Assembly (NCBI GenBank): GCA_016213135.1
Contig: JACRBQ010000036.1
Coordinates: 25,010 to 89,009, forward strand
Source of the DNA: Chloroflexota bacterium
Lineage (GTDB): Bacteria > Chloroflexota > Anaerolineae > Anaerolineales > VGOW01
Length of the DNA: 64,000 nucleotides
Reading direction: 5' to 3'
The notes beneath the pieces are model-generated. The model was not told where the DNA came from. It was given only the letters and a program-made list of their open reading frames with translations, and searched no databases. This document shows, piece after piece, positions 6,285 through 58,185 of this stretch; positions within the stretch are counted from its first letter, which is position 1; each line of letters begins with the position of its first letter. Both the position numbers and the translations under genes were made by a program.

Positions 6285-6372
6285 TCGCGTATCGCGTATT
6301 GCCTATCGCGTGTTGCCTTACGGCCATTTGCGATAAGCCATCAGCGATAAGCGAGATGCTGGAGAAACAACC

Positions 6373-24734: not shown

Positions 24735-26288
24735 TTGACTACATCACCACAGTCCAACTTGCGACAAGCTGAGATCATCATGGCGCTCTCACTCGCCACC
24801 GATCTTGGCACTGGCCGCCCGATGGAATGGGCGATGCGTTCCGCCCTGCTCGGCGTGCGGTTGGGCGAAGCATTGGGTTGGGACGAAGCGGAATTGCGCG
24901 CTGCGTATTACTGCGCCCTGCTGATGTACATTGGTTGCACTTCGGAAATCGGGCTGGCTCTGCAACTGTTTGGCGACGACCCGCAGGCCGGCCTAGCCGC
25001 GGTGGACTTGATCAACAAGAGCGACCCGAGGCAGATGCTGACGTGGATGCTCAAGTATCTCGGCGCGGGCCAGCCGCTGACTGAGCGCCTGCGCGCGTTC
25101 GCCAACATCGGCCAGGCGATGACTACCTACAAACTCGGCCACTGTGAGGTGGCCCAGCGCCTGGCCGAGCGGTTGAGCCTTGAGCCGTCCATTCAGACGG
25201 CGCTGACACAGTTGGGTGAACAGTGGGACGGGCAAGGCGAGCCGCACAAGTTGAAAGGTGAGGAAATTGCGCGCCCGATGCGGGTGGCGTTGCTGGTGCG
25301 CGACATCGAAGCGCATCTGAACACGCACGGCGTTGAGGCGGCTGTGGCCGTGGCCCGCCAACGCTCCGGCAATATCCACGACCCGCACATCGTCAGCCGG
25401 TTTTGTGAGCAAGCGCCGCAGTTGTGCGCCACGTTGGCGCAAGATGCAGACTGGGACGCCTTGCTTGCCATTGAACCCCGGCCACGCCTTTACTCCACTG
25501 AAGAGTTTGACAATGCCACGCTGGTGATGGCCGACTTCATTGATTTGATCGCGCCCGCCTTCACCGGCCACTCACGCAACGTGGCGGCGTTGGCGGAAAC
25601 GTCCGCCCGGCAATACGGCTTGCCGGAGTCCGACGCCAAGTCGCTGTGGCGCGCCGCGCTCCTGCACGACCTCGGCAAGATTGCCGTGCCAATGGGGTTG
25701 TGGTCAAAACCCCTGCCGTTGAGCCAGAGCGAATGGGAGCGGGTGCGCCTGCATCCTTACTACACCGAGCGCATTCTCGCCCGCCCGACGCAGTTGGCGC
25801 AACTGGGCGCGGTAGCGGCTCTGCATCACGAGAAGCTGGATGGTTCCGGCTACCACCGGCAGGTGCGGGCGGAGGGCCTCTCCCCCGCCGCGCGATTGCT
25901 GACCGCCGCTAATTTCTATCAGGCCCGCATCGAGCCGCGCCCGCACCGCGAACCACAGTTGCCGGATAGCATCGCGCAAGCCATGAGACAGGAAGTGCGC
26001 GCCGGGCGGCTGGATGGTGAGGCGGTGAACTGCGTCCTGCAGGCCGCCGGGCACCGCACTACTCCTGTGCGGCGCGAGCGCGTCGCCGGGTTGAGCGAGC
26101 GCGAGATTGAAGTCCTCCGTCTGCTGGCGCGGGGCTACACCAATCGCCAAATGGCGCAAACACTGGAGATTACGGAAAAGACGGCGGGCAACCACGTCGT
26201 GCATATCTACGAGAAAATCGGTTGTTCAACCCGGTCGGCGGCCACCCTGTTTGCCATGCAACATCACCTGCTCAGCGAGCCGGTCTGA
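24735..26288 (+). CDS. HD-domain (HD-GYP-related) signalling protein with C-terminal LuxR HTH
   Basis: LHDLGKIAVP and HHEKLDGSGYHR, then LSEREIEVLRLLARGYTNRQMA. Paralogue of 47937-49514. TTG start as given by the track. Confidence 0.8.
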   Translation: MTTSPQSNLRQAEIIMALSLATDLGTGRPMEWAMRSALLGVRLGEALGWDEAELRAAYYCALLMYIGCTSEIGLALQLFGDDPQAGLAAVDLINKSDPRQMLTWMLKYLGAGQPLTERLRAFANIGQAMTTYKLGHCEVAQRLAERLSLEPSIQTALTQLGEQWDGQGEPHKLKGEEIARPMRVALLVRDIEAHLNTHGVEAAVAVARQRSGNIHDPHIVSRFCEQAPQLCATLAQDADWDALLAIEPRPRLYSTEEFDNATLVMADFIDLIAPAFTGHSRNVAALAETSARQYGLPESDAKSLWRAALLHDLGKIAVPMGLWSKPLPLSQSEWERVRLHPYYTERILARPTQLAQLGAVAALHHEKLDGSGYHRQVRAEGLSPAARLLTAANFYQARIEPRPHREPQLPDSIAQAMRQEVRAGRLDGEAVNCVLQAAGHRTTPVRRERVAGLSEREIEVLRLLARGYTNRQMAQTLEITEKTAGNHVVHIYEKIGCSTRSAATLFAMQHHLLSEPV

Positions 26289-33289: not shown

Positions 33290-34621
33290 ATGAATCCAAT
33301 AAGGATGTGGCCGCATTCAGCGGCGCGGTGGGGGTTGGCATTGATCCTGCTTTTGGCCGCGGGCCTTTTGGCGCTCGGCTGGCTCGCTATCGTCAAAATC
33401 GAAGGGCGGAACGCATTGGTAACAACCGCCGGCCTGCGCAGCGGTCAAGCCGCCGATCTCGCCACGAGCCTGACGCGTTCAGGGTACGCCGATGAGGGCC
33501 TAGAAGTGGAGGCCATTTTGGCAACTCCCGGTTTCTTCCGCCTCACAAACCGGACTCAAGAGGCGGCAGAACTGGGCGCCGATCGGTTCGTGGTGTTCGT
33601 CATCAACGAGAATGTGCATTACGGGTCGCTGCCCCATCATCTTGGTGTAATTCTACGCCTCGACGGAACAAATCTTCACGTGGCTTCTGAGGTCCGAGTG
33701 TTGACCGACGCCGTTCATCACCGCACGAGCGTCGTGATCTTCAACGACCTCCCGGCGGCGCTTTTGAACGACAGCCACACTCTCGAATTGCTGCTGCCGC
33801 AAAACAGCGGCGGCTCTCGAACTGTGCTCCAGTGGTACGCCCCAATTGATTACCCGGTGAGTGTTCAACAGCCGCGTGTGTTGAGCCTGGGGTTGTTGCT
33901 CACCCTGGCCGCCGGGTTGTTAGCCGCCATCTCACCCTGCTTGCTGCAGCTCACTGCCTTCTACCTGCCGACTCTGGCTGGTGTGAGCATGGGTGCGACT
34001 GATGGCCCTGCGGCTTCTCCAGATCAAAAGCGCGTTCTAATGACCGCTCTGCTCTTCATTTTAGGATTCACTATTCCCTACACGGCTGGCGGGGCGCTGA
34101 TGGGTGGCATGGGGCAGGCGCTGGCCGCCAGCGGCCTGCTGACTCCAACCGGGCCAATCGCCACGGGCGCCGGCCTGGCCATCATCGTGATGGCAAGCGT
34201 CGTCGCCTACCGATCACGAGTGCCACTCGTCTGCAAGTTGCCGCTTCCGGCCGCCTTTCGGCGAAGCCGGCGCTTGCCGTTCGTTGAAACATTTGTCAGC
34301 GGTTTCGCCATTGCCACCGGCTGTCTGGCTTGCTTTGGTGGAGCCATCCTGGGAGTGCTGCTGGTTTACACGGGACTCCTGGGCTCGGCGACGTTGGGCG
34401 CGTTGGCGATGTTTGTTTTCTCCATGGGGCTGGCGATTCCATTCCTGCTGGCGGCCCTGAGCCTGTCGTGGGTGATGCCCCTGGCCGAGAAGCTCCAGCG
34501 GATGGCGCCAGCCATCGGTTTGCTAGCCAGCCTCCTGATGCTGTTCTTCGGAGTCGTCATGGCTACCGGCAACTTCCACGTGGTGAGCGGTTGGCTGTAT
34601 CAGCACCTGCCGCTGGGCTGA
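33290..34621 (+). CDS. CcdA/DsbD-type thiol-disulfide transporter membrane protein with a large N-terminal extracytoplasmic domain
   Basis: LAAISPCLLQLTAFYLP and IATGCLACFGG in a multi-TM core. About 190-aa N-terminal domain after one TM. Confidence 0.65.
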   Translation: MNPIRMWPHSAARWGLALILLLAAGLLALGWLAIVKIEGRNALVTTAGLRSGQAADLATSLTRSGYADEGLEVEAILATPGFFRLTNRTQEAAELGADRFVVFVINENVHYGSLPHHLGVILRLDGTNLHVASEVRVLTDAVHHRTSVVIFNDLPAALLNDSHTLELLLPQNSGGSRTVLQWYAPIDYPVSVQQPRVLSLGLLLTLAAGLLAAISPCLLQLTAFYLPTLAGVSMGATDGPAASPDQKRVLMTALLFILGFTIPYTAGGALMGGMGQALAASGLLTPTGPIATGAGLAIIVMASVVAYRSRVPLVCKLPLPAAFRRSRRLPFVETFVSGFAIATGCLACFGGAILGVLLVYTGLLGSATLGALAMFVFSMGLAIPFLLAALSLSWVMPLAEKLQRMAPAIGLLASLLMLFFGVVMATGNFHVVSGWLYQHLPLG

Positions 34622-36869: not shown

Positions 36870-36998
36870 ATGATTGAGAAGGTCTATTCAAAAGCCGGCC
36901 GCTCCTGCCGAGTGACCTTTGAACTTCCGCCTGAAGTAATATGCGAGACAGCCTGCCTCTGCGGCGAATTCAATGAACAGAAACAAGGTTTTCAATGA
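36870..36998 (+). pseudogene. Truncated CBM48/E-set-like gene remnant
   Basis: MIEKVYSKAGRSCRVTFELPPEVICETACLCGEFNE parallels MIKKIYSETEPSWLVTFELPPEVNAQTACLCGEFDEW (57335 gene) but stops after 42 aa. Its stop overlaps the next ATG. Confidence 0.5.
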
Positions 36999-37867
36999 AT
37001 TGGACAGCCTACTGGTTTATGTTTCCGGTTGCCCTCGGCATCGCCATCCTGGCCAATGCCACCGGCATCGAAGGGGCAACGTTCTTCTCGCCGGTCTTTA
37101 TCCTGATTCTGCGGCTCGACCCGCGCATCGCCATCGGCACAGCGCTCATCACCGAAGTCTTCGGGTTTGGCTCAGGCGTATCGGCCTACGTGCGCCGGAA
37201 GTTGATTGATTACCGGCTCGCCGGCCAACTGCTTCTGGTAACCGTGCCGCTGGCGTTGGCCGGCGCGTACTTTGCCAGGCTGGCGCCGCCGGTCGTCCTC
37301 AAGTCTGTCTTTGGCGTCGGCCTGCTGATCATCGGCATCAACTTCCTGCGCGCGCCGTCGCCGCAAGCCGTCCGGGCGCTCGATCAATCGATCCGCGCCG
37401 ACTTTCCACAGGGCAAGGCCGAACGGCGATTGCAAGCCGCCGACGGCCAGGAGTATAGTTACACCGTCTGCAATTCGACCGAGGGCGGGATCATCTGCGG
37501 CGTGGGCGGGCTATTTATGGGATTGATCGGCTCCGGGCAGGGCGAACTCAACGGATACTTTCTTTTGCGCCGTTGCCGGGTGCCGAGCAAAGTTGCCGTC
37601 GCCACCGGGGCCCTCGTCGTCGCCGCCACTGCGCTGGCGGCCTCGCTCGGCTATTTCATCACCTTCGTCCGCACCGGCGGCGACGTGCTGGCGCAGGTGT
37701 TGAGCCTGGTCATCTACACCGTGCCGGGCGTCATCCTCGGCGGCCAATTCGGCCCGGCGCTCGCGGCCCGGTTGGACGCGCACAAAACGGAGCGCATGCT
37801 GGCAATTCTTTTCCTCCTGATTGGAGTTGTGACACTATGGACGACGCTAACTCAAATACTCGCCTGA
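36995..37867 (+). CDS. TauE/SafE-family sulfite/anion exporter
   Basis: Multi-TM protein with duplicated halves (FGFGSGVSAY, GLIGSGQGELNGYFLL). Confidence 0.75.
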   Translation: MNWTAYWFMFPVALGIAILANATGIEGATFFSPVFILILRLDPRIAIGTALITEVFGFGSGVSAYVRRKLIDYRLAGQLLLVTVPLALAGAYFARLAPPVVLKSVFGVGLLIIGINFLRAPSPQAVRALDQSIRADFPQGKAERRLQAADGQEYSYTVCNSTEGGIICGVGGLFMGLIGSGQGELNGYFLLRRCRVPSKVAVATGALVVAATALAASLGYFITFVRTGGDVLAQVLSLVIYTVPGVILGGQFGPALAARLDAHKTERMLAILFLLIGVVTLWTTLTQILA

Positions 37868-37880
37868 TTGTTTATGGCCG

Positions 37881-38582
37881 ATGAGCATTCCTGCGCTCAC
37901 CACGGCCCAAATGGCCGAAGTGGATCGGCTGATGATTGAAGAATATGGCATCCTGCTAATCCAAATGATGGAAAACGCCGGGCGCAACCTGGCCGAGCTG
38001 GCGCGGCGGATGCTGGACGGAAAATTGGCTGGCCGCAAAATTGTGGCCCTGTGTGGCGCGGGCAACAACGGTGGCGGCGGGATGGTGGCAGCCCGCCACC
38101 TGCACAACTGGGGCGCAGATGTCCAAGTAAAGCTGATTGCCGATCCTGACAAACTCACAAACGTCCCTGCGCGCCAGTGGCGAATTTTGCAAACGATGGG
38201 GATCGTCGTAGAATATACTCTCGATCTCGCCCGGGCCGATCTGATCCTCGACGCTATCATTGGGTACGGCCTGACCGGGAACCCGCGCGGCGAAGCCGCT
38301 GAATGGATCGAGCGAGCGAATAGGAGTGGCCGCCCGATCCTGGCGCTCGACGCGCCATCCGGCCTTGACACAACGAGCGGCCTCGCCGGCCAGCCGTGCA
38401 TTGGCGCGACGGCAACGTTGACATTGGCCCTACCCAAGTCTGGGCTGATCGCGCCGCAAGCCCAACCGTTCGTCGGCGATCTCTATCTGGCCGACATCGG
38501 CGTGCCGCCCGAACTGTATCGGCGGATCGGACTCGAAGTGGGAACGTTATTTGCCGAAGACACGATTATCAGGATCAATTAA
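37881..38582 (+). CDS. NAD(P)H-hydrate epimerase (YjeF N-terminal domain)
   Basis: LMENAGRNLA, CGAGNNGGGGMVAARHL, DAIIGYGL, LALDAPSGL. Confidence 0.85.
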   Translation: MSIPALTTAQMAEVDRLMIEEYGILLIQMMENAGRNLAELARRMLDGKLAGRKIVALCGAGNNGGGGMVAARHLHNWGADVQVKLIADPDKLTNVPARQWRILQTMGIVVEYTLDLARADLILDAIIGYGLTGNPRGEAAEWIERANRSGRPILALDAPSGLDTTSGLAGQPCIGATATLTLALPKSGLIAPQAQPFVGDLYLADIGVPPELYRRIGLEVGTLFAEDTIIRIN

Positions 38583-38598
38583 ATCGAAGGAGCCGTTT

Positions 38599-39792
38599 AT
38601 GGATCGCACCAAACCCGACATCATTACCGTTTACAGCACCGTGTGGTGCCCGGACTGCAAACGCGCCAAAAAGTTTTTCGGCGAACAGCGCGTGCCGTAT
38701 GTCAACATTGACATCGAGCAAGACGCCGAGGCGATGGCGTTTGTCGAAAAAGTCAACGACGGCAAACACATTATCCCAACCATCGTCTTTCCCGACGGAT
38801 CGATGCTCGTCGAACCCTCCAACGCCGAGCTGGCCGCGAAGCTGAGCTTGCAAACGAAGGCGCAGCGCCAGTTCTATGACGCCATCGTCATCGGCAGCGG
38901 CCCGGCGGGCCTCACCGCCGCGTTCTACATGGCCCGCGAAGGCATGGACACGCTGGTGATCGAAAAGGCCGGGCTGGGCGGCCAGGTCGGAGTCACGCAG
39001 AGGCTCGACAACTTTCCCGGTTTCGACCAGGGCATCCCCGGCGCAGAGTTCGCCGAGCGGTTGGGCAAGCAGGCGCGCCGCTTTGGGGTGGAAATTTTGC
39101 AGGCGCAAGCCGTCACCGACATTTCGCCCGACGGGCCCTACCTGTGCGTAACCACCGGCGACGGCGCGGTGTACGCGACCAAAGCCGCGCTGTTGGCGAC
39201 GGGCGCGCACTACCGCAAACTCGGCGTAGCGGGCGAGGATGGATTGATCGGCGTCAACATTCACTTTTGCGCGACGTGCGACGGCGCGTTTTACAAAGGC
39301 AAGAAGGTGCTGGTCGTGGGCGGCGGCAACAGCGGCTTTGAAGAAGGGTTGTTCCTGACGAAGTTCGCCTCCCAGGTGGACATCGTCGAATTCCTGCCGG
39401 AAGCGAAGGCCGGCCAAATTTTGCAGTCGGAAGTTGCCAAACATCCGAAGATGAGGGTGACTCTCAACCATGCTGTCAAGGAATTCAAAGGCAAGCACCG
39501 GCTGGACTCTATCCTCGTCGAGGATCGCGCCACCGGGGAATTGAAGGAGTGGACTTACGACGGCGTGTTTGTCTTTATCGGCCTTTCGCCGAACAGTGAG
39601 TTGGTGAAAGGCAAAGCGGAGATCGATCCCTACGGGTTCGTGATCACCGACAAAACATTGATGACTTCGGTGCCGGGTCTGTTCGCCGCCGGCGACGCCC
39701 GCGCCGGCTCCACCAAACAAGCGGCCTCTGCCGCGGGAGAGGGCGCCACGGCGGCGTTGATGATCCGGCAATATCTGAAAGAAGCCGGGTAG
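38599..39792 (+). CDS. Glutaredoxin-like domain fused to thioredoxin-reductase-type flavoprotein
   Basis: N-terminus ITVYSTVWCPDCKRAKKFF. TrxR core GSGPAGLTAA, CATCDGAFYKGKKV, GGGNSGFEEG. GAAGGAG Shine-Dalgarno before ATG 38599. Confidence 0.85.
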   Translation: MDRTKPDIITVYSTVWCPDCKRAKKFFGEQRVPYVNIDIEQDAEAMAFVEKVNDGKHIIPTIVFPDGSMLVEPSNAELAAKLSLQTKAQRQFYDAIVIGSGPAGLTAAFYMAREGMDTLVIEKAGLGGQVGVTQRLDNFPGFDQGIPGAEFAERLGKQARRFGVEILQAQAVTDISPDGPYLCVTTGDGAVYATKAALLATGAHYRKLGVAGEDGLIGVNIHFCATCDGAFYKGKKVLVVGGGNSGFEEGLFLTKFASQVDIVEFLPEAKAGQILQSEVAKHPKMRVTLNHAVKEFKGKHRLDSILVEDRATGELKEWTYDGVFVFIGLSPNSELVKGKAEIDPYGFVITDKTLMTSVPGLFAAGDARAGSTKQAASAAGEGATAALMIRQYLKEAG

Positions 39793-43709: not shown

Positions 43710-45356
43710 TTAGACCTCTTGATCGGCTTTCACGCGATTCCGGCCCGCATTCTTCGCTGCGTACAACGCCCGGTCGGCGCGCTCAATCAGATCCGTATCG
43801 GTGATCCCGCTGGCGCAAGTCGCCACACCCAGGCTCGCCGTCAGGCGGCCCAACGGGAATGGGAAGGCTTCCACCGCCGCGCGGATTTTCTCGGCCGCCG
43901 CCAGCGCGCCCTCCAATTCCGTCTCCGGCAAGACGACGGTGAACTCTTCGCCGCCGTAGCGCGCCACCAGGTCGGCCCCACGCACGTTCTTCAGCAGGAT
44001 GCGCCCCACCTGCTGCAAGACGGCGTCGCCGGCCGGGTGGCCGTGTGCGTCATTGTATTGTTTGAAGTGGTCAATGTCCAGCATGAGCAGCGCCAGGCCG
44101 TGCCGGTAACGCGCGCACGCGGCCAGTTCCTTCTGGATGAAAGTGTCGAGATAGCGGTGGTTGTATAGCCCGGTCAGCCCGTCGGTGATCGACTCGCGCA
44201 AAACCTGTTCGTGCAGTTGCGCCTTTTCGAGCGCTACCGACACCTGGTTGGCCAGCGATTGGAGCGTCGCCGCCTCGTTGGCGTCGAAGGTGGTCTCGTC
44301 TTTGCGCCGCACGGTCATTACCCCGATTACCTGCGAGTCGGAGCGCAGCGGCAGGGCCAGTTCACTCGTCGGCATCGGGCGCCGGGTCGGTATCTCCGTC
44401 AGGTCGCTAAGCGCGATCCGTCCGCCGACCTCCGGGCACGGGTCGCAGTCCTCGCACGCACAGGCTTTGACGAGCACGGCGTCGCCGTCCAGCAGGCCGA
44501 TGCTCGTTCGGTAGAAGCCAAATCCCTGGCAGACCGATGTGACCACTGCTTGAAGCAACTCATCCACCTGGAGGATCGCCATCAGTCGGGAACTGACCTC
44601 GTTGAGCGTAGCCAATTGGCGGGCGCGCTCCTGCTCCTGATCGTAGAGGCGCGCATTGACCACCGCTGTGGCGAATTGGGCCGCAAGTTGCTCAGCCAGC
44701 GCCACGTGTTCGGCGGTGTAGGCGTTCGCCCGGCGTGCCCCCAGATTCAAGACGCCGATCACCTGTGCCTGAGCGACGATGGGCACGACCATGGCCGCGC
44801 GAATGCCCTCCTGCGCCAGCCGCGCGTCCATGGGTGAGGTCTGTTCGCGCTCGAGGTCGCCGACGAGGTTCGTCTGACGCCGGGCGATGGCATCGGCCAC
44901 GCGCGCGTTGTCCTTCATTGGCACCAGCCTCCCCCGGCCAATCTGCTGGGCCATGAGGCCCGAGGCGGCCAGCATTCTCAGCGCCTGCGCGGCTTCATCC
45001 AGAATGCCGAGGCTGGCGCGGTCAAGCGGCAACAGTTCCCGGGCTTCGGCTACGAAGGCCTCGAACGCAGTCTGGAGGTCGAGGGTGGAGTTGATGACTT
45101 GAATCAGGCGGTTGAGCGCCGCCAGTTCGCGGCTGCGGTGAAGAATCGTGTCTTCGCGTTTCCCGATCTGGCTGAAGACGGCACGGGAGAACAGAAACGC
45201 GCCGACGGCCGTCGCGCCGATGGTCAGCGCAAAAGCGATCTCTACAGAGAGCAGGCTCGGGATACGGAAGTATGCGGCGTAGGCGAGCAGCGCGACGAAG
45301 GCCGTCGGCGCGGCTACGGCGACCCACCGCATGGATCGTAGACGGAGTGCGTCCAT
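43710..45356 (-). CDS. Membrane-anchored tandem-GAF diguanylate cyclase (GGDEF)
   Basis: Two N-terminal TM helices, two GAF-like regions, and a GGDEF domain (LLMLDIDHFKQYND, RYGGEEFTVVL). Confidence 0.88.
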   Translation of the reverse strand: MDALRLRSMRWVAVAAPTAFVALLAYAAYFRIPSLLSVEIAFALTIGATAVGAFLFSRAVFSQIGKREDTILHRSRELAALNRLIQVINSTLDLQTAFEAFVAEARELLPLDRASLGILDEAAQALRMLAASGLMAQQIGRGRLVPMKDNARVADAIARRQTNLVGDLEREQTSPMDARLAQEGIRAAMVVPIVAQAQVIGVLNLGARRANAYTAEHVALAEQLAAQFATAVVNARLYDQEQERARQLATLNEVSSRLMAILQVDELLQAVVTSVCQGFGFYRTSIGLLDGDAVLVKACACEDCDPCPEVGGRIALSDLTEIPTRRPMPTSELALPLRSDSQVIGVMTVRRKDETTFDANEAATLQSLANQVSVALEKAQLHEQVLRESITDGLTGLYNHRYLDTFIQKELAACARYRHGLALLMLDIDHFKQYNDAHGHPAGDAVLQQVGRILLKNVRGADLVARYGGEEFTVVLPETELEGALAAAEKIRAAVEAFPFPLGRLTASLGVATCASGITDTDLIERADRALYAAKNAGRNRVKADQEV

Positions 45357-45409
45357 ATCGTTTCCCTCGGTATGGCTAAACTAGTAGTCCGCCAATGTTA
45401 GAACGCTGT

Positions 45410-45458
45410 GTAGTTTAGCCCCTTGTGCGCGTGCGCCGCCCACAAGGGGCTAGGCTAC
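45410..45458. repeat. REP-like palindromic element (family copy 3, best preserved)
   Basis: GTAGTTTAGCCCCTTGTG-CGCGTGCGCCGCC-CACAAGGGGCTAGGCTAC. Confidence 0.55.
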
Positions 45459-45486
45459 GACTATGCGATCCAAATTTGGTGAACTA

Positions 45487-46562
45487 CTAGCCTGTGTTTG
45501 ACGCCAAGAACACCTCTACTATCGCCGGGTCAAAATGCCTACCGGCCTGCTCTCTAATATACTCCCATATTGTATCTTCCGGCCAACCTTTGCGGTAGGG
45601 CCGGTCGGAGCGCAGCGCATCCCCACATCCACTACGGCGAAGATGCGCGCCGCCAGCGGGATTTCCTGCCCTTTCAACCCGCGCGGGTAGCCCGTGCCAT
45701 CCCACTTTTCGTGATGGCAATACGGAATATCGAGCGCCGGACGGAGGTAGGCGATGGGCAGAAGCATTTCGTACGCATAGGCCGGGTGCTTGCGCATGAT
45801 CTCCCACTCCCCGTCGCCGAGGGGGCCGGCCTTGAGCAGAATGCGGTCGGGAATGCCCATCTTGCCAATGTCGTGCAACAGCGCGCCGCGGCGGATGTGG
45901 ACCAGTTCTTCTTCGCCCAGCTCCATCGTTTGCGCGAGGCGCAGCGTCCTAGTGGTGACGCGCCGGGTGTGGCCTTCGGTCTCCAGGTCGCGCAGTTCGA
46001 GGGCGCGCGCCCAGCCTTCGAGGGTGGCGTCGTAGGCCAGGTTCAACTCGACGTTCGAGTGTTGCAAACCTTCGAACAGGCGAACATTGTCCATAGCAAT
46101 GGCCGCCTGCGTCGCCAGGGTTTCCAAGAAGTCGAGCCACGCGGGATCCCGATTGACCGGCGAGTGATGAAAGACCTCCAGCACGCCCTGCACCTCACCT
46201 TTGGCAATGAGCGGCACGGCGTAGTGCGCTACGAATCCTTCGGCGGCCCAGAGTTGGGCGCGTTGAGACGCCAGTTCGGAATCGCGCAGATCGGGAACGT
46301 GAACGGTGCGGCGTTCGAGCGCGGCTAACCCGGCATGGCCGCTCCCGATCCGAACACGACTGCGCTCGACGCCCTTCGAGCGGAAGCCGCGACCGGCAAC
46401 GTACGCCAGGGTTTGGCGGTCCGGTTCGAGCATCAGCACAGCCGCCGCATCAACGCCCAACTGGGAGACAACCGCATCGAGCAGGACATTGAAGGTCAGG
46501 CGCAGGTCAAGGCTGGCGGTGATGGCCAGGGCAATGCTGTGAAGGGCGGACAGGTGCTGCAC
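45487..46562 (-). pseudogene. GAF + HD-GYP phosphodiesterase gene with a frameshift in a G4 run (pseudogene or assembly error)
   Basis: HHEKWDGTGYPRGL...AARIFAVVDV is followed in a different frame by DALRSDRPYRKGWPEDTIWEYIREQAGRHFDP. The shift maps to GTGGATGTGGGGATGCG (about 45621-45627). Confidence 0.6.
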
Positions 46563-46588
46563 GCGCCGTTCGACTTGTTCGTGCAGGG

Positions 46589-46816
46589 CAGCGCGGGGTC
46601 GCTGATGGCGGCGAGGGAGATGAAGTGGACGCCGTCGGGGAAATCGTCAGTGGCGTCCGCCGCCGTTTGAATGGCGAGCCGGGTCTTGCCCATCCCACCG
46701 GGGCCGGTGAGGGTGACCAGCCTCACTTCATCGCGCCTCAAAAGGGCGCGCAACGCGGCGATTTCTTGCTCGCGTCCGATCAGGGGCGTGGGCGGGGTGG
46801 GGAGGCCGGGGAGCAT
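46589..46816 (-). pseudogene. N-terminal P-loop NTPase fragment of a large ATP-dependent regulator
   Basis: [44 protein letters not shown]. Homology ends after about 76 aa and runs out of frame into the GAF gene. Confidence 0.4.
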
Positions 46817-46926
46817 AGCCGGATTATACGCCCGGCCTCGGAGCGTCGGGAAACGGCACGGCGCGCAAAAACAAAACGGCCTGATGGGGTTGTCCATCAG
46901 GCCATTGTGAGCCAATAAGTTGGCGG

Positions 46927-47355
46927 CTACGCCGTTTGCGGGGCCGCGCCGAGCTGTTGCATCATACCCGCGAAGTCAGCCTGGTTCCAGCGTTCTACGA
47001 TGGCGTTACCCGCAATACGGTCAATGGTGATCCCGGTTAACGTGATCGTCTTGCCAGTGGCGGGGATACCCATGAACGGCCCGATGTGAGTTCCTCGAAA
47101 CGTCCACCGCCAGGCGACCTTGTCCCCTTCGGCGATCAGGTCATCAATCGTCGAAGAGGCGTCGGAGAAGGCGGCGCTGAACATGGTGAAGAGTTGTTTG
47201 AGGCCCTCTCGGCCGGGCGTAGCGCCAGGGAGCGCAGTGCGGTCAACGAAATCGGCGGCAAACACTTCATCCAGCACGGCCGCATTTCCCTCGTTCCACA
47301 CCCCCTGAATGAGTCGGCGAATGACGGCTTTGTTTTGTTCTTGCAGGGTAGACAT
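46927..47355 (-). CDS. Ester cyclase (SnoaL-like polyketide cyclase fold)
   Basis: [32 protein letters not shown] and [30 protein letters not shown] Shine-Dalgarno before ATG 47355. Confidence 0.75.
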
Positions 47356-47387
47356 GGTTGATTCTCCTTTACGTGTGAATAATTCCA

Positions 47388-47822
47388 TTACGCCGCTTTG
47401 GGCTTGGAAAACAGATAAGCGCCATAAATGAGCGTGAAAATCGCTGCAAATCCAACGTCCGCCCAGGCCACGGCGCTCATGGTTTCCAAGGTTAGTTTTC
47501 CGATGAGGATAACCAGACCTCCAATTCCCCAACTCACACAGAATTTAAAGGCCACCGCTCGCAAGGTCTCTCGGCTTTGAGCATTCAGGACAAACAACGC
47601 CAACAGGCAATCGCTGATCGCGGCGGGGGACAACAGCCGAGTCGTGAAAAGGGTCGCCGCATCAACGCTCAACCCGTGCATTTCGAGAAATTTCTCCGGC
47701 GCGAAAAACAAGGTTACGGCATACAAGCCGTCGAGAAAGGCCGTGATAATTAGCAGCGTTTTCATGTTGAGCGTGACGGGCCGATGAAGAATGATCTGGC
47801 TTTGTTCTGGCAGGGTGGACAT
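47388..47822 (-). CDS. Hypothetical 4-TM membrane protein
   Basis: ORF with AAGGAG Shine-Dalgarno 8 nt upstream. Hydrophobic segments. No recognised domain. Confidence 0.5.
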   Translation of the reverse strand: MSTLPEQSQIILHRPVTLNMKTLLIITAFLDGLYAVTLFFAPEKFLEMHGLSVDAATLFTTRLLSPAAISDCLLALFVLNAQSRETLRAVAFKFCVSWGIGGLVILIGKLTLETMSAVAWADVGFAAIFTLIYGAYLFSKPKAA

Positions 47823-47936
47823 GGTTGGCTCTCCTTGTTAGAGTGTTAGCGCCAGTCTACGTCCACCGGGGCGAAGCCGCATCGCGTGTTCGCGCTATTT
47901 TTGAATCGGGTTCGGGGAGGGGCCGGGGAGCGCGGC

Positions 47937-49514
47937 CTAAGACGAGGCGCTGTCGGCTGGGTCGTGAAGGAGGTTGTGGTGCATCGTAAAGAGGGTGGCC
48001 GCCGCGCGGGTGGACACATCAATCTTGTCGTAGATGTGCCGGATGTGATGGCCGGCCGTATGCGGCGAGATGCTTAAGCGCTGGGCGATTTCCCGGTTCG
48101 ACAGACCTCGGGCGACGAGGCGCAGCACTTCCACTTCCCGGTCGGTCAGCCCGGCCACCCACGCCCGCCGCGCCGGCGTGGCCCGGTGGCCCGCCGCCAG
48201 CACGGCGTTGGCTGCCTCGCCATCCAAGCGGCCCGCGCGCACTTCGGCCCGCAGTGTTTCGGCGGCGGCATCAGGCGAGAGCGCCGGGCGATGCGGGCGC
48301 GGCTCGGTCATCGCATGATAGGCGTCGGCGGCGGCCAGGATGCGCGCCAGCGGCGAGAGCATGCTGGCGGGTAGGCGGCGAGGATAGCCGGAGCCGTCGA
48401 GCCGCTCGTGGTGGGCCGCGCCTATCGCGCCGAGTTGGGCGAGCGGCTTGGCGCGCGACAGGATGCGCTCGGTGTAGTAGGGATGCAGGCGCACACTCTC
48501 CCACTCACCATCCGTCAGCGCCCCCGGTTTATTCCAGAGGAGGGTCGAGACACCTACCTGGCCCAAGTCGTGCAGGTAGGCCGCCTGCCGCACGCTGACC
48601 ACATCAGACTCGGGCAGGTCGCAGTGCCGGGCCGCGGCGGCGGCCAATCGGGCCACGCCGCTGGAATGGTTCACCGTGTAGGTCGTTTTCAAATCTACGA
48701 AATCGGCCACGGCCCGGGAGGCCGTTTCCAGTTGCTCCTCCGAGAGCCGCAGGCGCGGCCCCGGTTCAGCCTCGAGTACGGCGGCCCAGATGGAGTCCAC
48801 CTCCAACGCCTGGCACAAGCGGGGCGCATCCCGACAAAAACGCTCGACCAGCGCGGGATCGAATGCCCCTCCCGACCACTTGCGGGCCATGTTCACCGCA
48901 CCCTCGACGCCGCCGACCCGGTGAAACACCGCTGCCCCATGCGCCAGGTTTGCCACCCGCATGACAAGCAGGGTGGCCTCGCCTTTGAGACCGGTTGGCA
49001 GGCCGTGTCCATCCCAGCGCTCGGTCACTTGCCCCAACGCTGTCTGCACTGTCTCGTTTAGCCCAAGCCGCCCGGCCAGCATTTGGCCGACCTCGCAATG
49101 GCTCGTCATCAACTCATGGTTGTTCCCCGCCATCGTAGCGATGGCGGCGGCCAGGGCGGAGGCGCGTTGCAGAGGCGGAAGCCCGGCGCCGACGAATTGG
49201 ATGATGGCTCGCAGTGACTCGGCCTGGCTGGTGTAGTCTACGAGGGGTGTTTGAGCGCGAAAGGCATTCGTGTCGCCGAAGATGGCCGCGAGGAGGTGAT
49301 TGGAAGCAGTGCAACCGATGAAGCGCAGGAGCGTGAGGTAATAGAGATCGCTGAGATCGGCGTCGCTCAATCCGAGCGTTTCTCCCAGACGGACCGCCAG
49401 CAGGCAGGCGCGCAATGCCTTTTCCATTGGCTCGCCGGTGCCGATGTCGGTGGCGAGGGAGAGGGCGGCCATGAGTTCGGCGAGGCGGTACTCGGTTGTG
49501 GTTGGCGCCGGCAT
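47937..49514 (-). CDS. HD-domain (HD-GYP-related) signalling protein with C-terminal LuxR HTH (paralogue of 24735-26288)
   Basis: LHDLGQVGVS and HHERLDGSGYPR, then LTDREVEVLRLVARGLSNREIA. Confidence 0.8.
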   Translation of the reverse strand: MPAPTTTEYRLAELMAALSLATDIGTGEPMEKALRACLLAVRLGETLGLSDADLSDLYYLTLLRFIGCTASNHLLAAIFGDTNAFRAQTPLVDYTSQAESLRAIIQFVGAGLPPLQRASALAAAIATMAGNNHELMTSHCEVGQMLAGRLGLNETVQTALGQVTERWDGHGLPTGLKGEATLLVMRVANLAHGAAVFHRVGGVEGAVNMARKWSGGAFDPALVERFCRDAPRLCQALEVDSIWAAVLEAEPGPRLRLSEEQLETASRAVADFVDLKTTYTVNHSSGVARLAAAAARHCDLPESDVVSVRQAAYLHDLGQVGVSTLLWNKPGALTDGEWESVRLHPYYTERILSRAKPLAQLGAIGAAHHERLDGSGYPRRLPASMLSPLARILAAADAYHAMTEPRPHRPALSPDAAAETLRAEVRAGRLDGEAANAVLAAGHRATPARRAWVAGLTDREVEVLRLVARGLSNREIAQRLSISPHTAGHHIRHIYDKIDVSTRAAATLFTMHHNLLHDPADSASS

Positions 49515-49564
49515 CGCCAGTATTATACGACTTCGAAAATCGGACGCTGGGTGAGGCCAATGTC

Positions 49565-49741
49565 TTACGCGGCTGAGGCGCTTGAGGCGCGCAAGATCCG
49601 CATGAGCGCCTCAAACTCCTCGCGGCAGTCCGGGCACATGTCGAGATGTTTCTGGACCAGCGGCATCAGTTTGGCGGCGTCCTCGCCGCGTCGAACGGCT
49701 TCGGCAAATTGGTCGAGCAGACGGTGAACGTCGTCGCAGGA
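49565..49741 (-). pseudogene. 5'-truncated copy of the zf-HC2 anti-sigma gene
   Basis: SCDDVHRLLDQFAEAVRRGEDAAKLMPLVQKHLDMCPDCREEFEALMRIL closely parallels 12452-12772 at protein and nucleotide level. It has no N-terminal part and is out of frame with the upstream PAS ORF. Confidence 0.5.
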
Positions 49742-50090
49742 TACAGTGCGTTGATACGAATTCACCGTCGGGTGACAGGCGCGAAGTGGTAACCCCTTCG
49801 AAGTGAATCGTCCTCCCATCTTTGGCTCGCCAGCGCACCTCGTACATTCTCTCCCGGCCCCCTGCCACGTCGCGCAACACCTGCTGGATAACCGGGCGAT
49901 CTTCAGGAATGACGAGGTCCTGCAAGATATTCATGCCGAGAAGCTCGACGCGCGAGTATCCGGTCAGCGCCTCCGTCCGGCGGTTGATATCCAGCAGCCG
50001 CCCGCCCCTATCGACGTGAAAGATTACATCGAAGGCTGATTCGAAAACGGCCTGGTTCTGGCTCTCGGGTTGCCGCAGCACCTCATCCAT
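49611..50090 (-). CDS. Single PAS-domain protein; its C-terminal ~45 codons read out of frame through the anti-sigma fragment
   Basis: FESAFDVIFHVDRGGRLLDINRRTEALTGYSRVELLGMN...RWRAKDGRTIHFEGVTT. PAS homology ends near 49742. Confidence 0.6.
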   Translation of the reverse strand: MDEVLRQPESQNQAVFESAFDVIFHVDRGGRLLDINRRTEALTGYSRVELLGMNILQDLVIPEDRPVIQQVLRDVAGGRERMYEVRWRAKDGRTIHFEGVTTSRLSPDGEFVSTHCILRRRSPSARPICRSRSTRRGRRQTDAAGPETSRHVPGLPRGV

Positions 50091-50148
50091 AGGTTACACT
50101 CGCTTCGTGAGACTGCCGGTTCCGTGCCGGCGGCACAATTTCGCAAGA

Positions 50149-52116
50149 TCATCGCTTCGCTGAATCAGGGGCAGTCAGGGATTCGGCGCGCAGCCGCGCC
50201 CATTCCTCTTCCGGCACTTGCAGGAAGGCCTCGACTGCGCGCGGGTCGAATTGTGTCCCCCACCCGGCTTCGATCTCTGCGCGGGCAACGGCGTAGGGCC
50301 GGCCGGCGCGATACGGGCGGTCGGAGGTGATGGCGTCGAAGGTGTCGGCCACGGGGAAAATGCGCGCACCCGGCGGGATGGCCTCGCCCGCCAACCCCCG
50401 CGGGTATCCTGCGCCATCCCAGCGTTCCTGGTGGGCGCAGACGATTTCGCGCGCACCGTCGAGGAACGGGATACCCTGCAAGATGCGCTCGCCCCACTCG
50501 GGGTGGCAACGCATGATAGCCCGTTCAGCGTCCGTGAGCGGGCCGGGTTTGAGCAGGATGGCGTCCGGCACGCCGATCTTGCCGATGTCGTGCAGGAGCG
50601 CGCCGCGCCGGATCGTGGCCAGATCTTCCTCGGAGATGTTCATCCGGCGAGCCAGGGCCAGGGTGTAAGCAACGACACGGCGCGAATGACCCTCGGTTTC
50701 CTTGTCCCGCGCATCGAGCGCGGCGGCCAGCGCGTCGAGCGTGTGATCGTACGAAGTCGCCAGTTGCCGGGCCTGCTGTTGTTCGGATTCCAGCAACGCC
50801 TCTCGCTCCCGTTGCAAGTTCTTCAATTCCGTGATGTCCCGGTTGACGCCGACATAAGCCGCCGGCCGGCCGCGCTCATCTTTAACGGTAGAAACCGTGA
50901 GGAAGGAATCCCACGTCGTCCCGTTCTTGCGCCGGTTGGCGATCTCTCCGGCCCAATATCCCTGTGTGAGGATCTGCTCCCACATCTGCCGATAGAATGC
51001 CGGCGTGCTGTGCGGCGACTTGATCAGGCCGGGCTTCTGTCCCAGCGCCTCGGCGCGTCGAAAGCCGGTGAGCCGCTCGAAGGCCGGGTTGACATCCAAA
51101 ATGCGCGACTGCAGGTCGGTGATCATCACCGCATCCACCGTGCTCTCGAAAACATCCTTGTAGAGTCGCAACTCTTCAAAGAACATGGCGCGCTGCAGCG
51201 CAGTGCCGGCCTGGTTGGCAATCAGCCCCAACAAGCGCACGTCGTGGTCGTCAAAGGGGCCGGGCGCAGCGCGGTTGACTTGCAGAGCGCCGAGTACCCG
51301 CTCGCCGGCCAGCATGGGCACGCTTAATGCGGAGCGCAAGCCCAACTCGAGTAACTCGACAGGCACACGGAAGCGTGTTTCGCTTGCCATGTCGGCCGTC
51401 TGCACCGGCGTGCGTTGGGCAAAAGCGTAGCCGGCGGCGGTTTCCTCGCCCACTTCGAACGAGCGCGCCGCCGAGGCCTGCCCGGCTCCCGGAACGCCGG
51501 CCGGGGCGTTCCAGCCGATAGAGGCCAGCGCCTCGAGCCGCCGGCCGGCCGTGTCCGGCAGCAACAAGCCGCCGGCGTCGGCCTTCAAAGAAGCCAGCGC
51601 CGCTTCGAGCGTGTGCCGGGCGATCTCGGCCAGATCGAGAGTCTCCAACAAGCGACTCGACAGCTGCGCCATCGCGGCGAGTTCCTCAACGTGGTGGGCC
51701 TCGCGCTGCGCCCGCTCCGTGATGTCCCGAATGACGCTCACGACCAGCACGCCGTCCGCGGTTTCCAGAGGACTCAAGCTGCATTCTATCGGGAATTCAC
51801 TGCCATCCTTGCGCCGGGCCACGGGCAGCCGGGCGGACCCCATGGGCCGGACAGCGGGCGCGGCATGGTAGTCTGCGCGCTGCCCCACGTGGGCTGTGTG
51901 CAGCCGATCGGGAAGCAAGACCTCGACGAATTGGCCGAGCAACTCCTCCCGGCGGTAGCCGAACAGCCTCTCCGCCTGGGCGTTGACGAGCGCAATGCGA
52001 CCATCGCGGTCGGCGACCACCACGGCGTCCGGCGCGGATTCCAGGAGTTTCGGAGAGAGCGCCTGGTAAGTTTCGGTGTGTGGCGAGTGTGATTGCTTCA
52101 CGTGATCAGCTCCCAA
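50149..52116 (-). CDS. PAS-GAF-PAS-HD-GYP multidomain signalling protein
   Basis: Two PAS blocks (DRDGRIALVNAQAERLFGY, DLQSRILDVNPAFERLTGF), a GAF region, and HD-GYP (LLHDIGKIGVP, HQERWDGAGYPRGL). Confidence 0.88.
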   Translation of the reverse strand: MGADHVKQSHSPHTETYQALSPKLLESAPDAVVVADRDGRIALVNAQAERLFGYRREELLGQFVEVLLPDRLHTAHVGQRADYHAAPAVRPMGSARLPVARRKDGSEFPIECSLSPLETADGVLVVSVIRDITERAQREAHHVEELAAMAQLSSRLLETLDLAEIARHTLEAALASLKADAGGLLLPDTAGRRLEALASIGWNAPAGVPGAGQASAARSFEVGEETAAGYAFAQRTPVQTADMASETRFRVPVELLELGLRSALSVPMLAGERVLGALQVNRAAPGPFDDHDVRLLGLIANQAGTALQRAMFFEELRLYKDVFESTVDAVMITDLQSRILDVNPAFERLTGFRRAEALGQKPGLIKSPHSTPAFYRQMWEQILTQGYWAGEIANRRKNGTTWDSFLTVSTVKDERGRPAAYVGVNRDITELKNLQREREALLESEQQQARQLATSYDHTLDALAAALDARDKETEGHSRRVVAYTLALARRMNISEEDLATIRRGALLHDIGKIGVPDAILLKPGPLTDAERAIMRCHPEWGERILQGIPFLDGAREIVCAHQERWDGAGYPRGLAGEAIPPGARIFPVADTFDAITSDRPYRAGRPYAVARAEIEAGWGTQFDPRAVEAFLQVPEEEWARLRAESLTAPDSAKR

Positions 52117-53087
52117 TCATGCGGCAGGAAGTGAAGAGGCAAGATGAAAGTGAGCGTTTCGGGCAGGAAGCATTCGCGGTCGTCACAGGCCTGGTAGCGC
52201 AGCCGGGCGGCCACCTGAATGTTCCCCTCGCCGTCCCTGCTTCCACCCAGGCACTGAGCCCGGATCGCCAGTCGGCCGGTGTAGGCGGGTAGTCTCTCAC
52301 CCAGGGCTTCGACTTCCACCCCCTCAGGCTCCGGGTAAACAACCTGACTCAGCGAGAGCGCCTCGTTTTCATCCAGGGTCAGTTCCACCGGAATATGCCC
52401 CTCAGGCAGTGGACGGCCATAAATGTGCAAGCCGTCTGCCAGTGAGATATCAACTGTCAGCGTCGTCAACTGCCCCTTGCGAATCGTCGGCGAGGCGAAG
52501 TACGCCCGAGCCGCGAGGTGAGGCGTGGTAACGACCTGCGCCTCCCCTCGTTCCAGGTCCGCTACCCGGAAACTTCCCTGCAGCAGGTCATTGACCGACT
52601 CGCGGATGCGATGGTTGGCGATGAAACTCTTGTCAAACACACGCCCATCCCGGCCTACGGCATACACCCCCGGGTAAGGAACGCCGTACCACTCATGATC
52701 TTCGGGTATGTTCGTGTTCAGAATGCCGAAGGCTCGGATTACGTGACTCCCCTCGTCTGAGAGAAGAGGGTAGGTGATCTCGTATTTCTGTGCGAACTTC
52801 CGCAGGACAGCCTGCGAGTCCGGGCTGATCGCAAAAGCCCGGATACCGTTGCGGTTAAGCGTCTCCAGATTGCGTTGCAGTTCGACCAACTGCGATTTGC
52901 AATAGCCTCACCAGGAGGCGCTGCGGTAAAAGATGATCAGCGCCCGATCCGCGCCTCGAGTAGCCGAGAACCGGATTAATCTCCCGAACTGATCCGGTAA
53001 GGTAAAGTCCGGCGCCAGTTCGCCGATGGCCGGCCCCGTTGGAAAGTTCTCGCCAGTCGGATCTTCCTGGATCGATTTTGATGCCAT
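52098..53087 (-). CDS. Peroxiredoxin/AhpC-TSA domain fused to a DsbD-N-like domain, selenocysteine-containing; in-frame UGA at 52908-52910
   Basis: ATG 53087 (Shine-Dalgarno GAAAGGAAGA) opens MASKS...ELAPDFTLPDQFG...LIIFYRSASW-U-GYCKSQ, in frame with track ORF 52098-52889. The C-terminus carries RLRYQACDDRECFLP (DsbD-alpha-type). Confidence 0.8.
52870..52902 (-). promoter_or_regulatory. Candidate bacterial SECIS stem-loop
   Basis: UUGC-AAAUC-GCAGUU-GGUCG-AACUGC-AAC-GCAA: two-tier stem with apical loop GGUCG, starting 8 nt after the U of UGA. Confidence 0.55.
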
Positions 53088-53323
53088 CGTTCTTCCTTTC
53101 TCAATTCAGTTTCGCGCTTGCGCTGGCCGCCGGCCAGTTCGCAGCGTGAACTTCTCCCGGTGCAACTGTCAACGTGACCGATTGTACCTCACGGGGCGCT
53201 TGAGCGCCCAGTATGTCCCATCATAAAACAGTGTCCTGGCAGGAGAGGCAGGATAGCCTGCCGGACGGCGCAGAGGTAAGATTCAGAGCACTCGCCGCGT
53301 CTAACAGTAGAAAGGAGTCAGCG

Positions 53324-57334: not shown

Positions 57335-57631
57335 ATGATCAAGAAAATCTATTCCGAAACTGAGCCTTCGTGGCTGGTGACGTTCGAACTGCCGCCCGAG
57401 GTGAACGCGCAGACGGCCTGTCTGTGCGGAGAGTTCGACGAGTGGGACGAGACATCTCATCCAATGGAGCGCCGCGAGGACGGGAGTTTCACGCTGACCC
57501 TCTCGCTCCAGCCGGAGCGCCGTTATCGCTTCCGTTATTTGCTGGACGGCGAGCGATGGGAGAACGACTGGGCCGCCGACGCCTACGAGCCCAATCCGTT
57601 TGGGAGCGAAGATTCTGTGGTGCAATTGTGA
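57335..57631 (+). CDS. Small CBM48/E-set domain protein (paralogue of 54985-55278)
   Basis: VTFELPPEV...ACLCGEFDEW...FTLTLSLQPERRYRFRYLLDGERWENDWAADAY. Confidence 0.7.
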   Translation: MIKKIYSETEPSWLVTFELPPEVNAQTACLCGEFDEWDETSHPMERREDGSFTLTLSLQPERRYRFRYLLDGERWENDWAADAYEPNPFGSEDSVVQL

Positions 57632-58185
57632 CGAGGGCGCAACCGGGCGACCCGGCTCCCGACGTCACGCTGATGACGGTCGAAGGGCAGGCGGTGTCGT
57701 TGGCCAAAGCGTGGGGCGACGGGCAGAACGTTCTGCTGGTGTTCCTGCGACACCTGGGTTGACTGCCCTGCCGCGAGCATGTGGCACAGTTGTGCCGCCA
57801 CGTCGCCGAATTGGCCGCCTTGAATACAAAAGTAGTCGTGGTGTCGTTTGGTTCTTCGCCTTTGGGACGAGCCTGGCTCGATGAGACGCGGGAGCCTTTC
57901 ACGCTGTGGCTCGATCCAGAACGCGCCGCCTACCGCGCCTATGGCCTGGAACATTCGCTGCTTCGCTCGTGGGCGCCGCGTGTGTGGTGGCGTTATGCTC
58001 AATTGATGCTCACCGGTCGCAAATGGCGCGGCATTCAAGGTGACAGCGGCCAATTGGGCGGCGACTTCATCGTAGACAGGAACGGTGTCATCCATCTGGC
58101 TTACCGTAGTCACGATCCTACCGGCCGGCCGCCGGTGAGCCGAGTGCTGGATACTCTCAGGCGCCTCAATGGTGCCAGCAGATGA
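57628..58185 (+). CDS. Peroxiredoxin-like (AhpC/TSA_2, PRXL2/SelU-type) selenoprotein, second copy; in-frame UGA at 57760-57762
   Basis: GTG 57628 (GTGA overlap with the upstream stop) opens VTRAQPGDPAPDVTLMTVEG...LLVFLRHLG-U-LPCREH, in frame with track ORF 57781-58185. Its stop overlaps the glk ATG. Confidence 0.8.
57781..57798 (+). promoter_or_regulatory. Candidate bacterial SECIS stem-loop
   Basis: GUGGCAC-AGUU-GUGCCGC (7 bp including one G-U pair). Same AGUU loop and GCAC/GUGC core as at 16186-16199. Confidence 0.55.

Follow-up and report, generated by a model that had tools for sequence, protein, structure and literature searches.

The gene examined here lies on the reverse strand of a 64,000-nucleotide stretch of DNA, referred to throughout as the window, from a Chloroflexota bacterium of the order Anaerolineales (NCBI GenBank assembly GCA_016213135.1, contig JACRBQ010000036.1, positions 25,010 to 89,009 of the forward strand), and it raises the question of whether an in-frame TGA at its codon 60 ends a short reading frame or encodes selenocysteine (Sec, U), and of what a protein joining a Sec-containing AhpC/TSA domain to a DsbD-alpha-like domain would do. 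On the comparative evidence set out below, UGA-60 almost certainly encodes selenocysteine. The product is read, with a probability of roughly 60%, as a cytoplasmic two-domain selenoprotein, a selenol/thiol-disulfide oxidoreductase whose two redox centres would exchange electrons with each other.

Conventional listing of open reading frames (ORFs) cuts the selenoprotein frame into a 59-residue and a 263-residue ORF, with codon 60 in the context ...ALIIFYRSASW-U-GYCKSQLVELQRNLE... (motif ...IIFYRSASW-U-GYCKSQLVELQ), and it offers no in-frame start codon further upstream. The start codon, the Shine-Dalgarno-like sequence before it and the continuity of the frame with the 263-residue ORF, all proposed in a first-pass annotation of this DNA, hold at the level of the sequence (Table 1), and the C-terminal end of the protein reads RLRYQACDDRECFLP.

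The same truncation runs through public protein sets. In the protein search the closest matches, some 78 sequences of 183-269 residues, cover the post-UGA part only, one of them being a 98%-identical 263-residue 'redoxin domain-containing protein' from a Chloroflexi metagenome-assembled genome (P0001), and full-length matches begin only at 37-43% identity. An exhaustive search over protein representatives at 50% identity returned 2800 matches at E <= 1e-3 and 77 at E <= 1e-30; among the best 150 representatives, only about 25 have an alignment that reaches residue 70 or beyond at its start and are on this ground taken as full-length Cys forms, and the rest begin at the start of the post-UGA ORF, so that in public protein sets approximately five-sixths of the nearest clusters of the family begin immediately past the UGA. 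Aligned with the window protein, the full-length homologues read RSA[SDA]W-C-P-[YF]-C and carry Cys exactly at the UGA column in 16 of 18 cases, with Trp in the other two; this alignment with Cys-containing homologues had been put forward as a check in the first-pass annotation. The two Trp forms (WWPYC; P0103 and P0118), whose TGG codon differs from TGA by a single mutation, may have been inactivated, may work as mono-thiol proteins or may reflect a sequencing mistake.

Equally informative is the DNA that encodes the truncated proteins. Genomic loci (n = 80) were fetched with a profile of these proteins, seeded by a 12-sequence alignment, and they derive from Chloroflexota (Dehalococcoidia, Thermomicrobiales), Latescibacterota, Poribacteria, Gemmatimonas, Planctomycetota, Desulfobacterales, Binataceae and Acidobacteriota (mostly Bryobacterales). 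In every one of the 80 the upstream frame runs on through a TGA at the equivalent codon, within the conserved peptide ...PDFTLPDQxG...RSA[SD]W*[GP][YF]C[KR]xQLVEL; with the window gene included, 81 of 81 family genes use TGA here, and neither TAA nor TAG occurs. Moreover, an invariant Ser at position -4 relative to the UGA is written with both AGY and TCN codons, which shows that the segment 5' of the UGA is selected as protein.

A conserved downstream hairpin with an invariant loop GU is a hallmark of SelB-dependent decoding. In this family the alignment shows a short hairpin of the selenocysteine insertion sequence (SECIS) kind, 15 nt downstream of the UGA, that would help to decode it; counted from the U of the UGA, its stem comprises nt 18-23 and 29-34, and its loop starts 21 nt after the UGA. 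Across 77 distinct homologous sequences, 95.9% of the cells of the upper 6-bp stem are standard pairs, against 4-43% in a control in which the 3' partners were slid by 1-3 columns. Three of the six stem pairs have changed on both sides in a compensatory manner (47 cells), the observed covariation score was reached by none of 500 shuffles, and G25 and U26 of the loop are invariant. Stem covariation is found at synonymous sites: a Gln codon that alternates between CAG (57 sequences) and CAA (21) changes in step with a Leu codon that is CUG in 56 and UUG in 21. At +10, in the 3' arm, 77 of 78 sequences have YUG as their Leu codon, though the adjacent Leu codon is mostly CUC, and in the closing pair the third position of one codon is matched with the initial base of a Gln/Glu codon. 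Of three Cys-form genes used as controls, two retain QLVEL with a CUC codon that disrupts the invariant C-G pair, and in the third the peptide differs and the hairpin is missing. The first-pass annotation had drawn a two-tier hairpin with the apical loop GGUCG; its upper tier is present and conserved, while among the homologues just 39.5% of cells pair in the lower tier (AUUGC/GCAAU), so that this tier is not a family feature.

The conserved frame in the 80 loci, the Cys at the UGA column and the covarying hairpin together support the Sec codon that the first-pass annotation had assigned, and they bear equally on the two other ways in which the TGA might be read. Decoding of the UGA as Trp or Cys, through codon reassignment or read-through, is very improbable: the Trp at the UGA column in P0103 and P0118 speaks for it, but the selenoprotein gene itself and many ORFs of the window terminate with TGA, on which ground reassignment is rejected, the pattern recurs in phyla with the standard code, and the conserved downstream hairpin carries its invariant loop GU. 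A genuine stop at the TGA, a lesion in a pseudogene or a sequencing error, leaving just the 263-residue ORF or no product at all, is hardly credible, and the pseudogene reading is rejected: although public annotation calls that ORF only (P0001) and sel genes were not found within the 64-kb window, TGA and never TAA or TAG stands at this codon in all 81 genes from many phyla, the 59 upstream codons are under purifying selection, the covarying hairpin sits at the SECIS position, and a product of the downstream ORF alone would be without the initial strands of the fold and its active-site helix.

Further candidates for Sec use occur both in the window and among the relatives. A scan of the window for in-frame TGAs flanked by open frame yielded two SelL-related paralogues (Table 1), both with the motif VFLRHLG-U-LPCRE and both, with U read as C, above the cutoff of the NCBIfam model NF040769 'SelL-related redox protein' (153 and 167 bits against 120). 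Downstream of the UGA the two genes carry hairpins, CGCAC-AGUU-GUGCG and GGCAC-AGUU-GUGCC, that are set apart by a compensatory pair. In a locus from a Latescibacterota metagenome-assembled genome (L005), selD lies directly upstream of the family gene, at locus position ~4750-5800, approximately 1.2 to 0.2 kb 5' of that gene's Sec codon; it has an in-frame TGA of its own (...LAKTCG*AAKVSPVGLAKLL...) and is accordingly a putative Sec-type SelD. These two window candidates and the L005 selD would lend Sec decoding indirect support, and Dehalococcoidia are listed among the selenoprotein-rich bacteria in BSepDB (PMC13326102).

Turning to the protein, its AhpC/TSA domain overlaps a weaker Pfam match to Redoxin, and every NCBIfam model stays below its cutoff (the best is BCP, with 59 against 140 bits; SelL-related reaches 39.8 against 120). 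The best sequence match in the Protein Data Bank (PDB) is Mycobacterium tuberculosis AhpE (3e-11), followed by BCPs and then by ResA (2.7e-6). In the alignment with AhpE (FFPL-AFTGIC against FYRSASWUGYC), U60 falls on the Thr of the peroxiredoxin (Prx) motif PxxxTxxC, Cys63 on the peroxidatic Cys and Arg55 on the motif Pro, and the catalytic Arg of peroxiredoxins (GIANRGTF) stands opposite Pro139 (GVPYPGVY). Because of this alignment and because the family never varies at R55, W59, C63 and P139, the active site (W-U-x-x-C-[KR]-x-Q together with Pro) is assigned to the thioredoxin/TlpA/ResA/CcmG type, with Sec at its N-terminal nucleophile position; residue by residue, the alignment shows it built on a BCP-like (AhpC/TSA) scaffold that has lost the Prx Thr, Pro and Arg. 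The first-pass annotation, in which the protein was a peroxiredoxin with a selenolate in place of the peroxidatic or resolving thiol, has to be corrected on this point.

Three known classes were considered for the domain and rejected. A canonical peroxiredoxin shares the AhpC/TSA fold, but the PxxxT/SxxC motif is replaced by R55-S-A-S-W-U60-G-Y-C63, with Sec for Thr and Arg55 for Pro, and the catalytic Arg by Pro139. A PrxU-type protein (TxxU) would have Sec at the peroxidatic position, where this protein does not; with the NCBIfam PrxU model, whose cutoff is 270 bits, this protein reaches 17. Membership of the SelL-related proteins (NF040769) fails on the score given above. The protein does have the PF00578 domain, the UxxC motif and the Cys homologues of the Prx-like thiol:disulfide oxidoreductase selenoproteins. 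An AlphaFold2 full-length model was made of P0085, the closest signal-peptide-free Cys homologue, as a stand-in for the window protein (predicted local distance difference test, pLDDT, 92; predicted template-modelling score, pTM, 0.87); its best Foldseek matches are BcpB (template-modelling score, TM, 0.86), Bcp4 and PrxQ, which is consistent with a protein that is Prx-like by fold and CxxC by chemistry, and the pTM suggests that the two domains are held in a fixed arrangement.

The C-terminal half, taken as DsbD-alpha-like in the first-pass annotation, is shown by domain search and modelling to match a DsbD-alpha-type immunoglobulin-fold domain with a conserved Cys pair. With U read as C, the Pfam match to DsbD_N has an E-value of 5e-10 and 39.8 bits against a gathering threshold of 25. 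An AlphaFold2 model of window-protein residues 185-329, built with 75 homologues, is a beta-sandwich (pLDDT 93.9), and its 15 best PDB matches in Foldseek are all DsbD or ScsB alpha domains (E from 2.6e-6; TM 0.66-0.70, target-normalised), including 1l6p, 3pfu, 1z5y, 1jzd, 1vrs, 6dnv and 6c29. Three of these are DsbD-alpha complexes, with DsbC (1jzd), CcmG (1z5y) and DsbD-gamma (1vrs). DsbD-alpha was reached by the fold search but not by PDB searches on sequence alone, whether with the C-terminal domain or with its profile. Both C301 and C306 are invariant in 19 full-length sequences and present in at least 90% of 67 sequences, and this conservation marks the CX4C cysteines as a putative redox pair. 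The periplasmic location and the linkage to a DsbD/CcdA transmembrane domain that go with DsbD-alpha were not found for the window protein, which shows no transmembrane segment of its own.

DsbD-alpha exchanges electrons with thioredoxin-fold partners, namely DsbD-gamma, CcmG and DsbC. By analogy, U60 and one Cys of the CX4C pair would form a transient Se-S bond and so pass electrons between the two centres, and the electron-relay fusion suggested in the first-pass annotation is the natural reading of this architecture. The preferred direction would lead from a cytoplasmic thioredoxin-type donor to the DsbD-alpha-like CX4C pair, on to U60/C63 and finally to an oxidised substrate, with Sec as the substrate-facing nucleophile, since Sec is usually found at the centre that meets the substrate and limits the rate. 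In the alternative direction, the UxxC site would act like DsbD-gamma and feed the alpha domain.

Several points weigh against this reading of the gene as encoding a two-centre selenoprotein. The electron exchange between the centres is an argument from analogy. The scaffold is nearer to peroxiredoxins than to ResA/TlpA in both sequence and fold, and Arg55 is invariant, so that peroxidase chemistry at the selenoprotein site is possible. Neighbour clustering of the 81 loci gave no conserved partner gene that would point to a donor or a substrate, and selA, selB, selD and tRNA-Sec were not found in the 64-kb window. The Rfam SECIS families give no match to the hairpin, either at gathering thresholds or in a permissive local scan, and its folding energy is unremarkable against shuffled sequence (z = +0.7 to -1.6); the case for the SECIS is a comparative one, and the SECIS prediction that the first-pass annotation had proposed as a check is answered by the covarying stem across the 77 sequences, though without Rfam agreement.

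The main functional rival, which we regard as doubtful, is a selenium-dependent peroxidase in which a hydroperoxide would oxidise U60 to selenenic acid in the manner of glutathione peroxidase (GPx), C63 would resolve this to a selenenylsulfide, and the fused DsbD-alpha-like dithiol would recycle it. The Sec of GPx occupies the same position in the thioredoxin fold as U60, the best sequence and fold matches are the peroxiredoxins AhpE, BCP, BcpB and PrxQ, and the Arg55 adjoining the motif is invariant. A pathway leading from the DsbD-family protein ScsB through TlpA to a peroxiredoxin was reportedly described in Caulobacter by Cho et al. in 2012 and would be a precedent, and oxidative-stress and redox genes abound in the window, two di-haem cytochrome c peroxidases among them. 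A peroxidase is nonetheless hard to reconcile with the absence of three of the four site-defining Prx residues (Thr, Pro, Arg) and with the combination of W-C/U-x-x-C-[KR] and Pro, which is the signature of the disulfide reductases ResA, TlpA and CcmG; nor was the GPx catalytic tetrad identified.

It is improbable that the DsbD-alpha-like domain is instead a binding module, for a substrate or for a soft metal or metalloid such as Cu, Hg, As or Se, with the UxxC site drawing on an external reductant. Such a role would suit the ability of Ig-fold Cys pairs to bind metals, the presence in the window of AioA-like, MerA-like (HMA + Pyr_redox) and TauE genes, and the lack of a DsbD-beta/CcdA partner linked to the selenoprotein gene; yet the metal-related genes are 15-45 kb distant and synteny is not conserved, the Cys pair sits in a YQxC...C motif as does the redox-active pair of DsbD-alpha, and every matching solved structure of a DsbD-alpha-type domain is an electron-transfer module.

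Comparison with known systems places the two-domain oxidoreductase reading in context. Prx-like thiol:disulfide oxidoreductase selenoproteins were reportedly described by Kryukov and Gladyshev in 2004. The window protein resembles them in its AhpC/TSA fold, in having Sec first in UxxC, in its abundant Cys homologues and in a function that is predicted only; it differs in that they are not reported with DsbD_N, and in that no NCBIfam model reaches its cutoff here. They are defined as PF00578 proteins with UxxC (PMC13188914 Table 1; 'Prx-like 1', PMC2398784 Table 2), and their fusions in the latter source are to a PP2C-type phosphatase and to Unknown_3 with CxxC. With DsbD alpha (nDsbD, PF11412) and ScsB alpha the protein shares an Ig-like fold, a YQxC...C pair near the C-terminal end of the domain and a juxtaposed thioredoxin-fold partner, whereas it has CX4C in place of the CX5C of Escherichia coli DsbD alpha, is without a signal peptide, DsbD_TM or linked CcdA/DsbD-beta, and carries the domain C-terminal to its presumed partner and covalently fused to it. 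The W-C-x-x-C-[KR] motif, the conserved Pro at the cis-Pro position and the ResA match recall TlpA/ResA/CcmG; unlike the window protein, those are membrane-anchored or exported single-domain Cys proteins that CcdA/DsbD keeps reduced, and the window scaffold scores better against BCP/AhpE. BCP/PrxQ/AhpE peroxiredoxins agree in overall fold, in Pfam family and in the peroxidatic Cys on which Cys63 falls, and differ by the exchange of Thr for Sec, Pro for Arg and the catalytic Arg for Pro. In PrxU the Sec occupies the peroxidatic Cys position, in the window protein another. SelL-related proteins, present in two copies in the window, have the Prx-like fold and UxxC as well, in a different motif context and without DsbD_N.

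Another key aspect is the location of the protein. Neither the window selenoprotein nor its roughly 20 clade-1 relatives have a hydrophobic N-terminal segment, which points to a cytoplasmic location, in line with the missing signal peptide and the probable cytoplasmic placement given in the first-pass annotation. Across the family the N-termini fall into three classes. The first (~21 loci, including the window) has no hydrophobic segment and MAELINAGDP...-type starts; the second, of ~40 acidobacterial loci, has signal-peptide-like h-regions directly before a conserved TGP motif, as in MKLFALAAFASLLVAQ-TGP (L014, L020-L022, L025, L029, L041-L052, L054-L056, L059, L062-L069, L071-L072, L074, L076, L078-L080; Acidobacteriota/Bryobacterales); and the third, in Binataceae, has a helical N-terminal extension of ~45 residues with or without a hydrophobic segment. 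The acidobacterial Sec-form members are thus predicted to be exported selenoproteins, and the three classes indicate that the family would have cytoplasmic and exported versions, both with Sec. A further protein, P0122 (616 aa), matches the query in two stretches at twice the usual length and may have arisen by tandem duplication or by the joining of two family genes.

Table 1. Coordinates, in window positions, of the selenoprotein gene, its parts and related features
Feature	Position	Strand	Remarks
Selenoprotein gene	52098..53087	(-)	329 codons plus TGA stop (52100-52098); Sec (almost certain) at codon 60
Start codon ATG	53087-53085	(-)	Start matches clade-1 homologues with N-terminus MAELINAGDP...
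Shine-Dalgarno-like GAAAGGAAGA	53091..53100	(-)	3 nt 5' of the ATG
AhpC/TSA (BCP-like thioredoxin-fold) domain, residues 21-150	52638..53027	(-)	Pfam PF00578, 7e-28, U read as C
UGA codon, residue 60, almost certainly selenocysteine	52908..52910	(-)	Sole internal in-frame TGA
U-G-Y-C putative redox motif (U60, C63)	52899..52910	(-)	Family alignment and AhpE alignment
Putative SECIS hairpin, stem GCAGUU/AACUGC, loop GGUCG	52877..52893	(-)	Covariation over homologues
Pro139, cis-Pro-like position of CxxC oxidoreductases	52671..52673	(-)	Invariant in family alignments
DsbD-alpha-like immunoglobulin-fold domain, residues 200-314	52146..52490	(-)	Pfam PF11412 DsbD_N
CX4C pair C301-D-D-R-E-C306, YQAC...C motif	52170..52187	(-)	Conserved cysteines
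PAS-GAF-PAS-HD(HD_5) signalling gene	50149..52116	(-)	3' of the selenoprotein gene, overlapping it; Pfam-type domain calls
SelL-related in-frame-TGA gene 1	ATG 16031-16582	(+)	TGA 16163-16165
SelL-related in-frame-TGA gene 2	GTG 57628-58185	(+)	TGA 57760-57762; start guessed from paralogue

The immediate neighbourhood adds a possible link to signalling. The 19-nt overlap with the downstream PAS-GAF-HD-GYP gene reported in the first-pass annotation is correct if TTG 52116 is the start of that gene; an alternative in-frame GTG (52101-52099) would give a 4-nt GTGA overlap with the selenoprotein stop, a junction typical of translational coupling. The promoter/terminator scan found no terminator-like site between the two genes, which probably share a transcript. 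Neighbour clustering of the 81 loci also returned no CcdA/DsbD-beta gene, with the same outcome within the signal-peptide-free clade, and the sole recurrent 'neighbour' is a spurious antisense ORF; as no partner is conserved, the HD-GYP overlap is lineage-specific. In the window, the nearest DsbD_TM ORF lies ~18 kb from the selenoprotein gene.

Other genes of the window fall into two broad sets. Downstream of the selenoprotein gene and on the same strand, a run of signalling genes, in part related to cyclic di-GMP (c-di-GMP), spans window positions 43713-52116 and comprises PAS-GAF-PAS-HD, a PAS-only ORF, HD_5+GerE, SnoaL-like, GAF-HD and GAF-GGDEF genes; a second HD_5+GerE gene is found at 24735-26285. 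Regions rich in redox and metal functions lie at 2966-9012, 17542-19131, 22592-24343, 33290-34618, 36995-37864 and 38551-39789, and they encode the two di-haem cytochrome c peroxidases, an arsenite-oxidase-like Mo/Rieske_3 protein, a Pyr_redox_2 enzyme, a MerA-like HMA + Pyr_redox protein, TauE, a glutaredoxin-fused Pyr_redox_2 protein (thioredoxin-reductase-like) and a 443-residue protein with DsbD_TM at residues 202-402.

With respect to novelty, the chemistry belongs to a class already known, that of the Prx-like thiol:disulfide oxidoreductase selenoproteins. No description of a selenoprotein fusion to DsbD_N (PF11412) was found in the searchable literature or in curated models, and the same holds for its cytoplasmic form, the phylum breadth of the Sec form and the systematic truncation in databases. 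It is tentative at best, and in our estimate unlikely in all its parts, that the present account would stand as the founding description of a family of at least eight phyla, truncated in databases, in which a two-centre selenoprotein carries a DsbD-alpha-type domain without the membrane DsbD-beta/CcdA, is cytoplasmic in Chloroflexota, Latescibacterota and others and exported in Acidobacteriota, and works as a soluble, selenium-accelerated 'gamma-alpha'-like relay with its own substrates, which in the window lineage may couple to c-di-GMP (HD-GYP) signalling through the overlapping gene.

In the current view, DsbD-alpha domains work in the periplasm, where they pass on electrons delivered to them through a membrane domain. 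A family model that includes the Sec codon and the SECIS would correct hundreds of entries across many phyla, and the placement of the SECIS within the codons for the conserved peptide QLVEL offers a clean example of dual protein and RNA constraint. If the reading of the protein as a two-centre oxidoreductase is true, a conserved, cytoplasmic and membrane-independent alpha domain fused to a Sec CxxC partner would widen the picture of DsbD-alpha, and the family would provide a compact system for the study of Se-S exchange between two defined centres.

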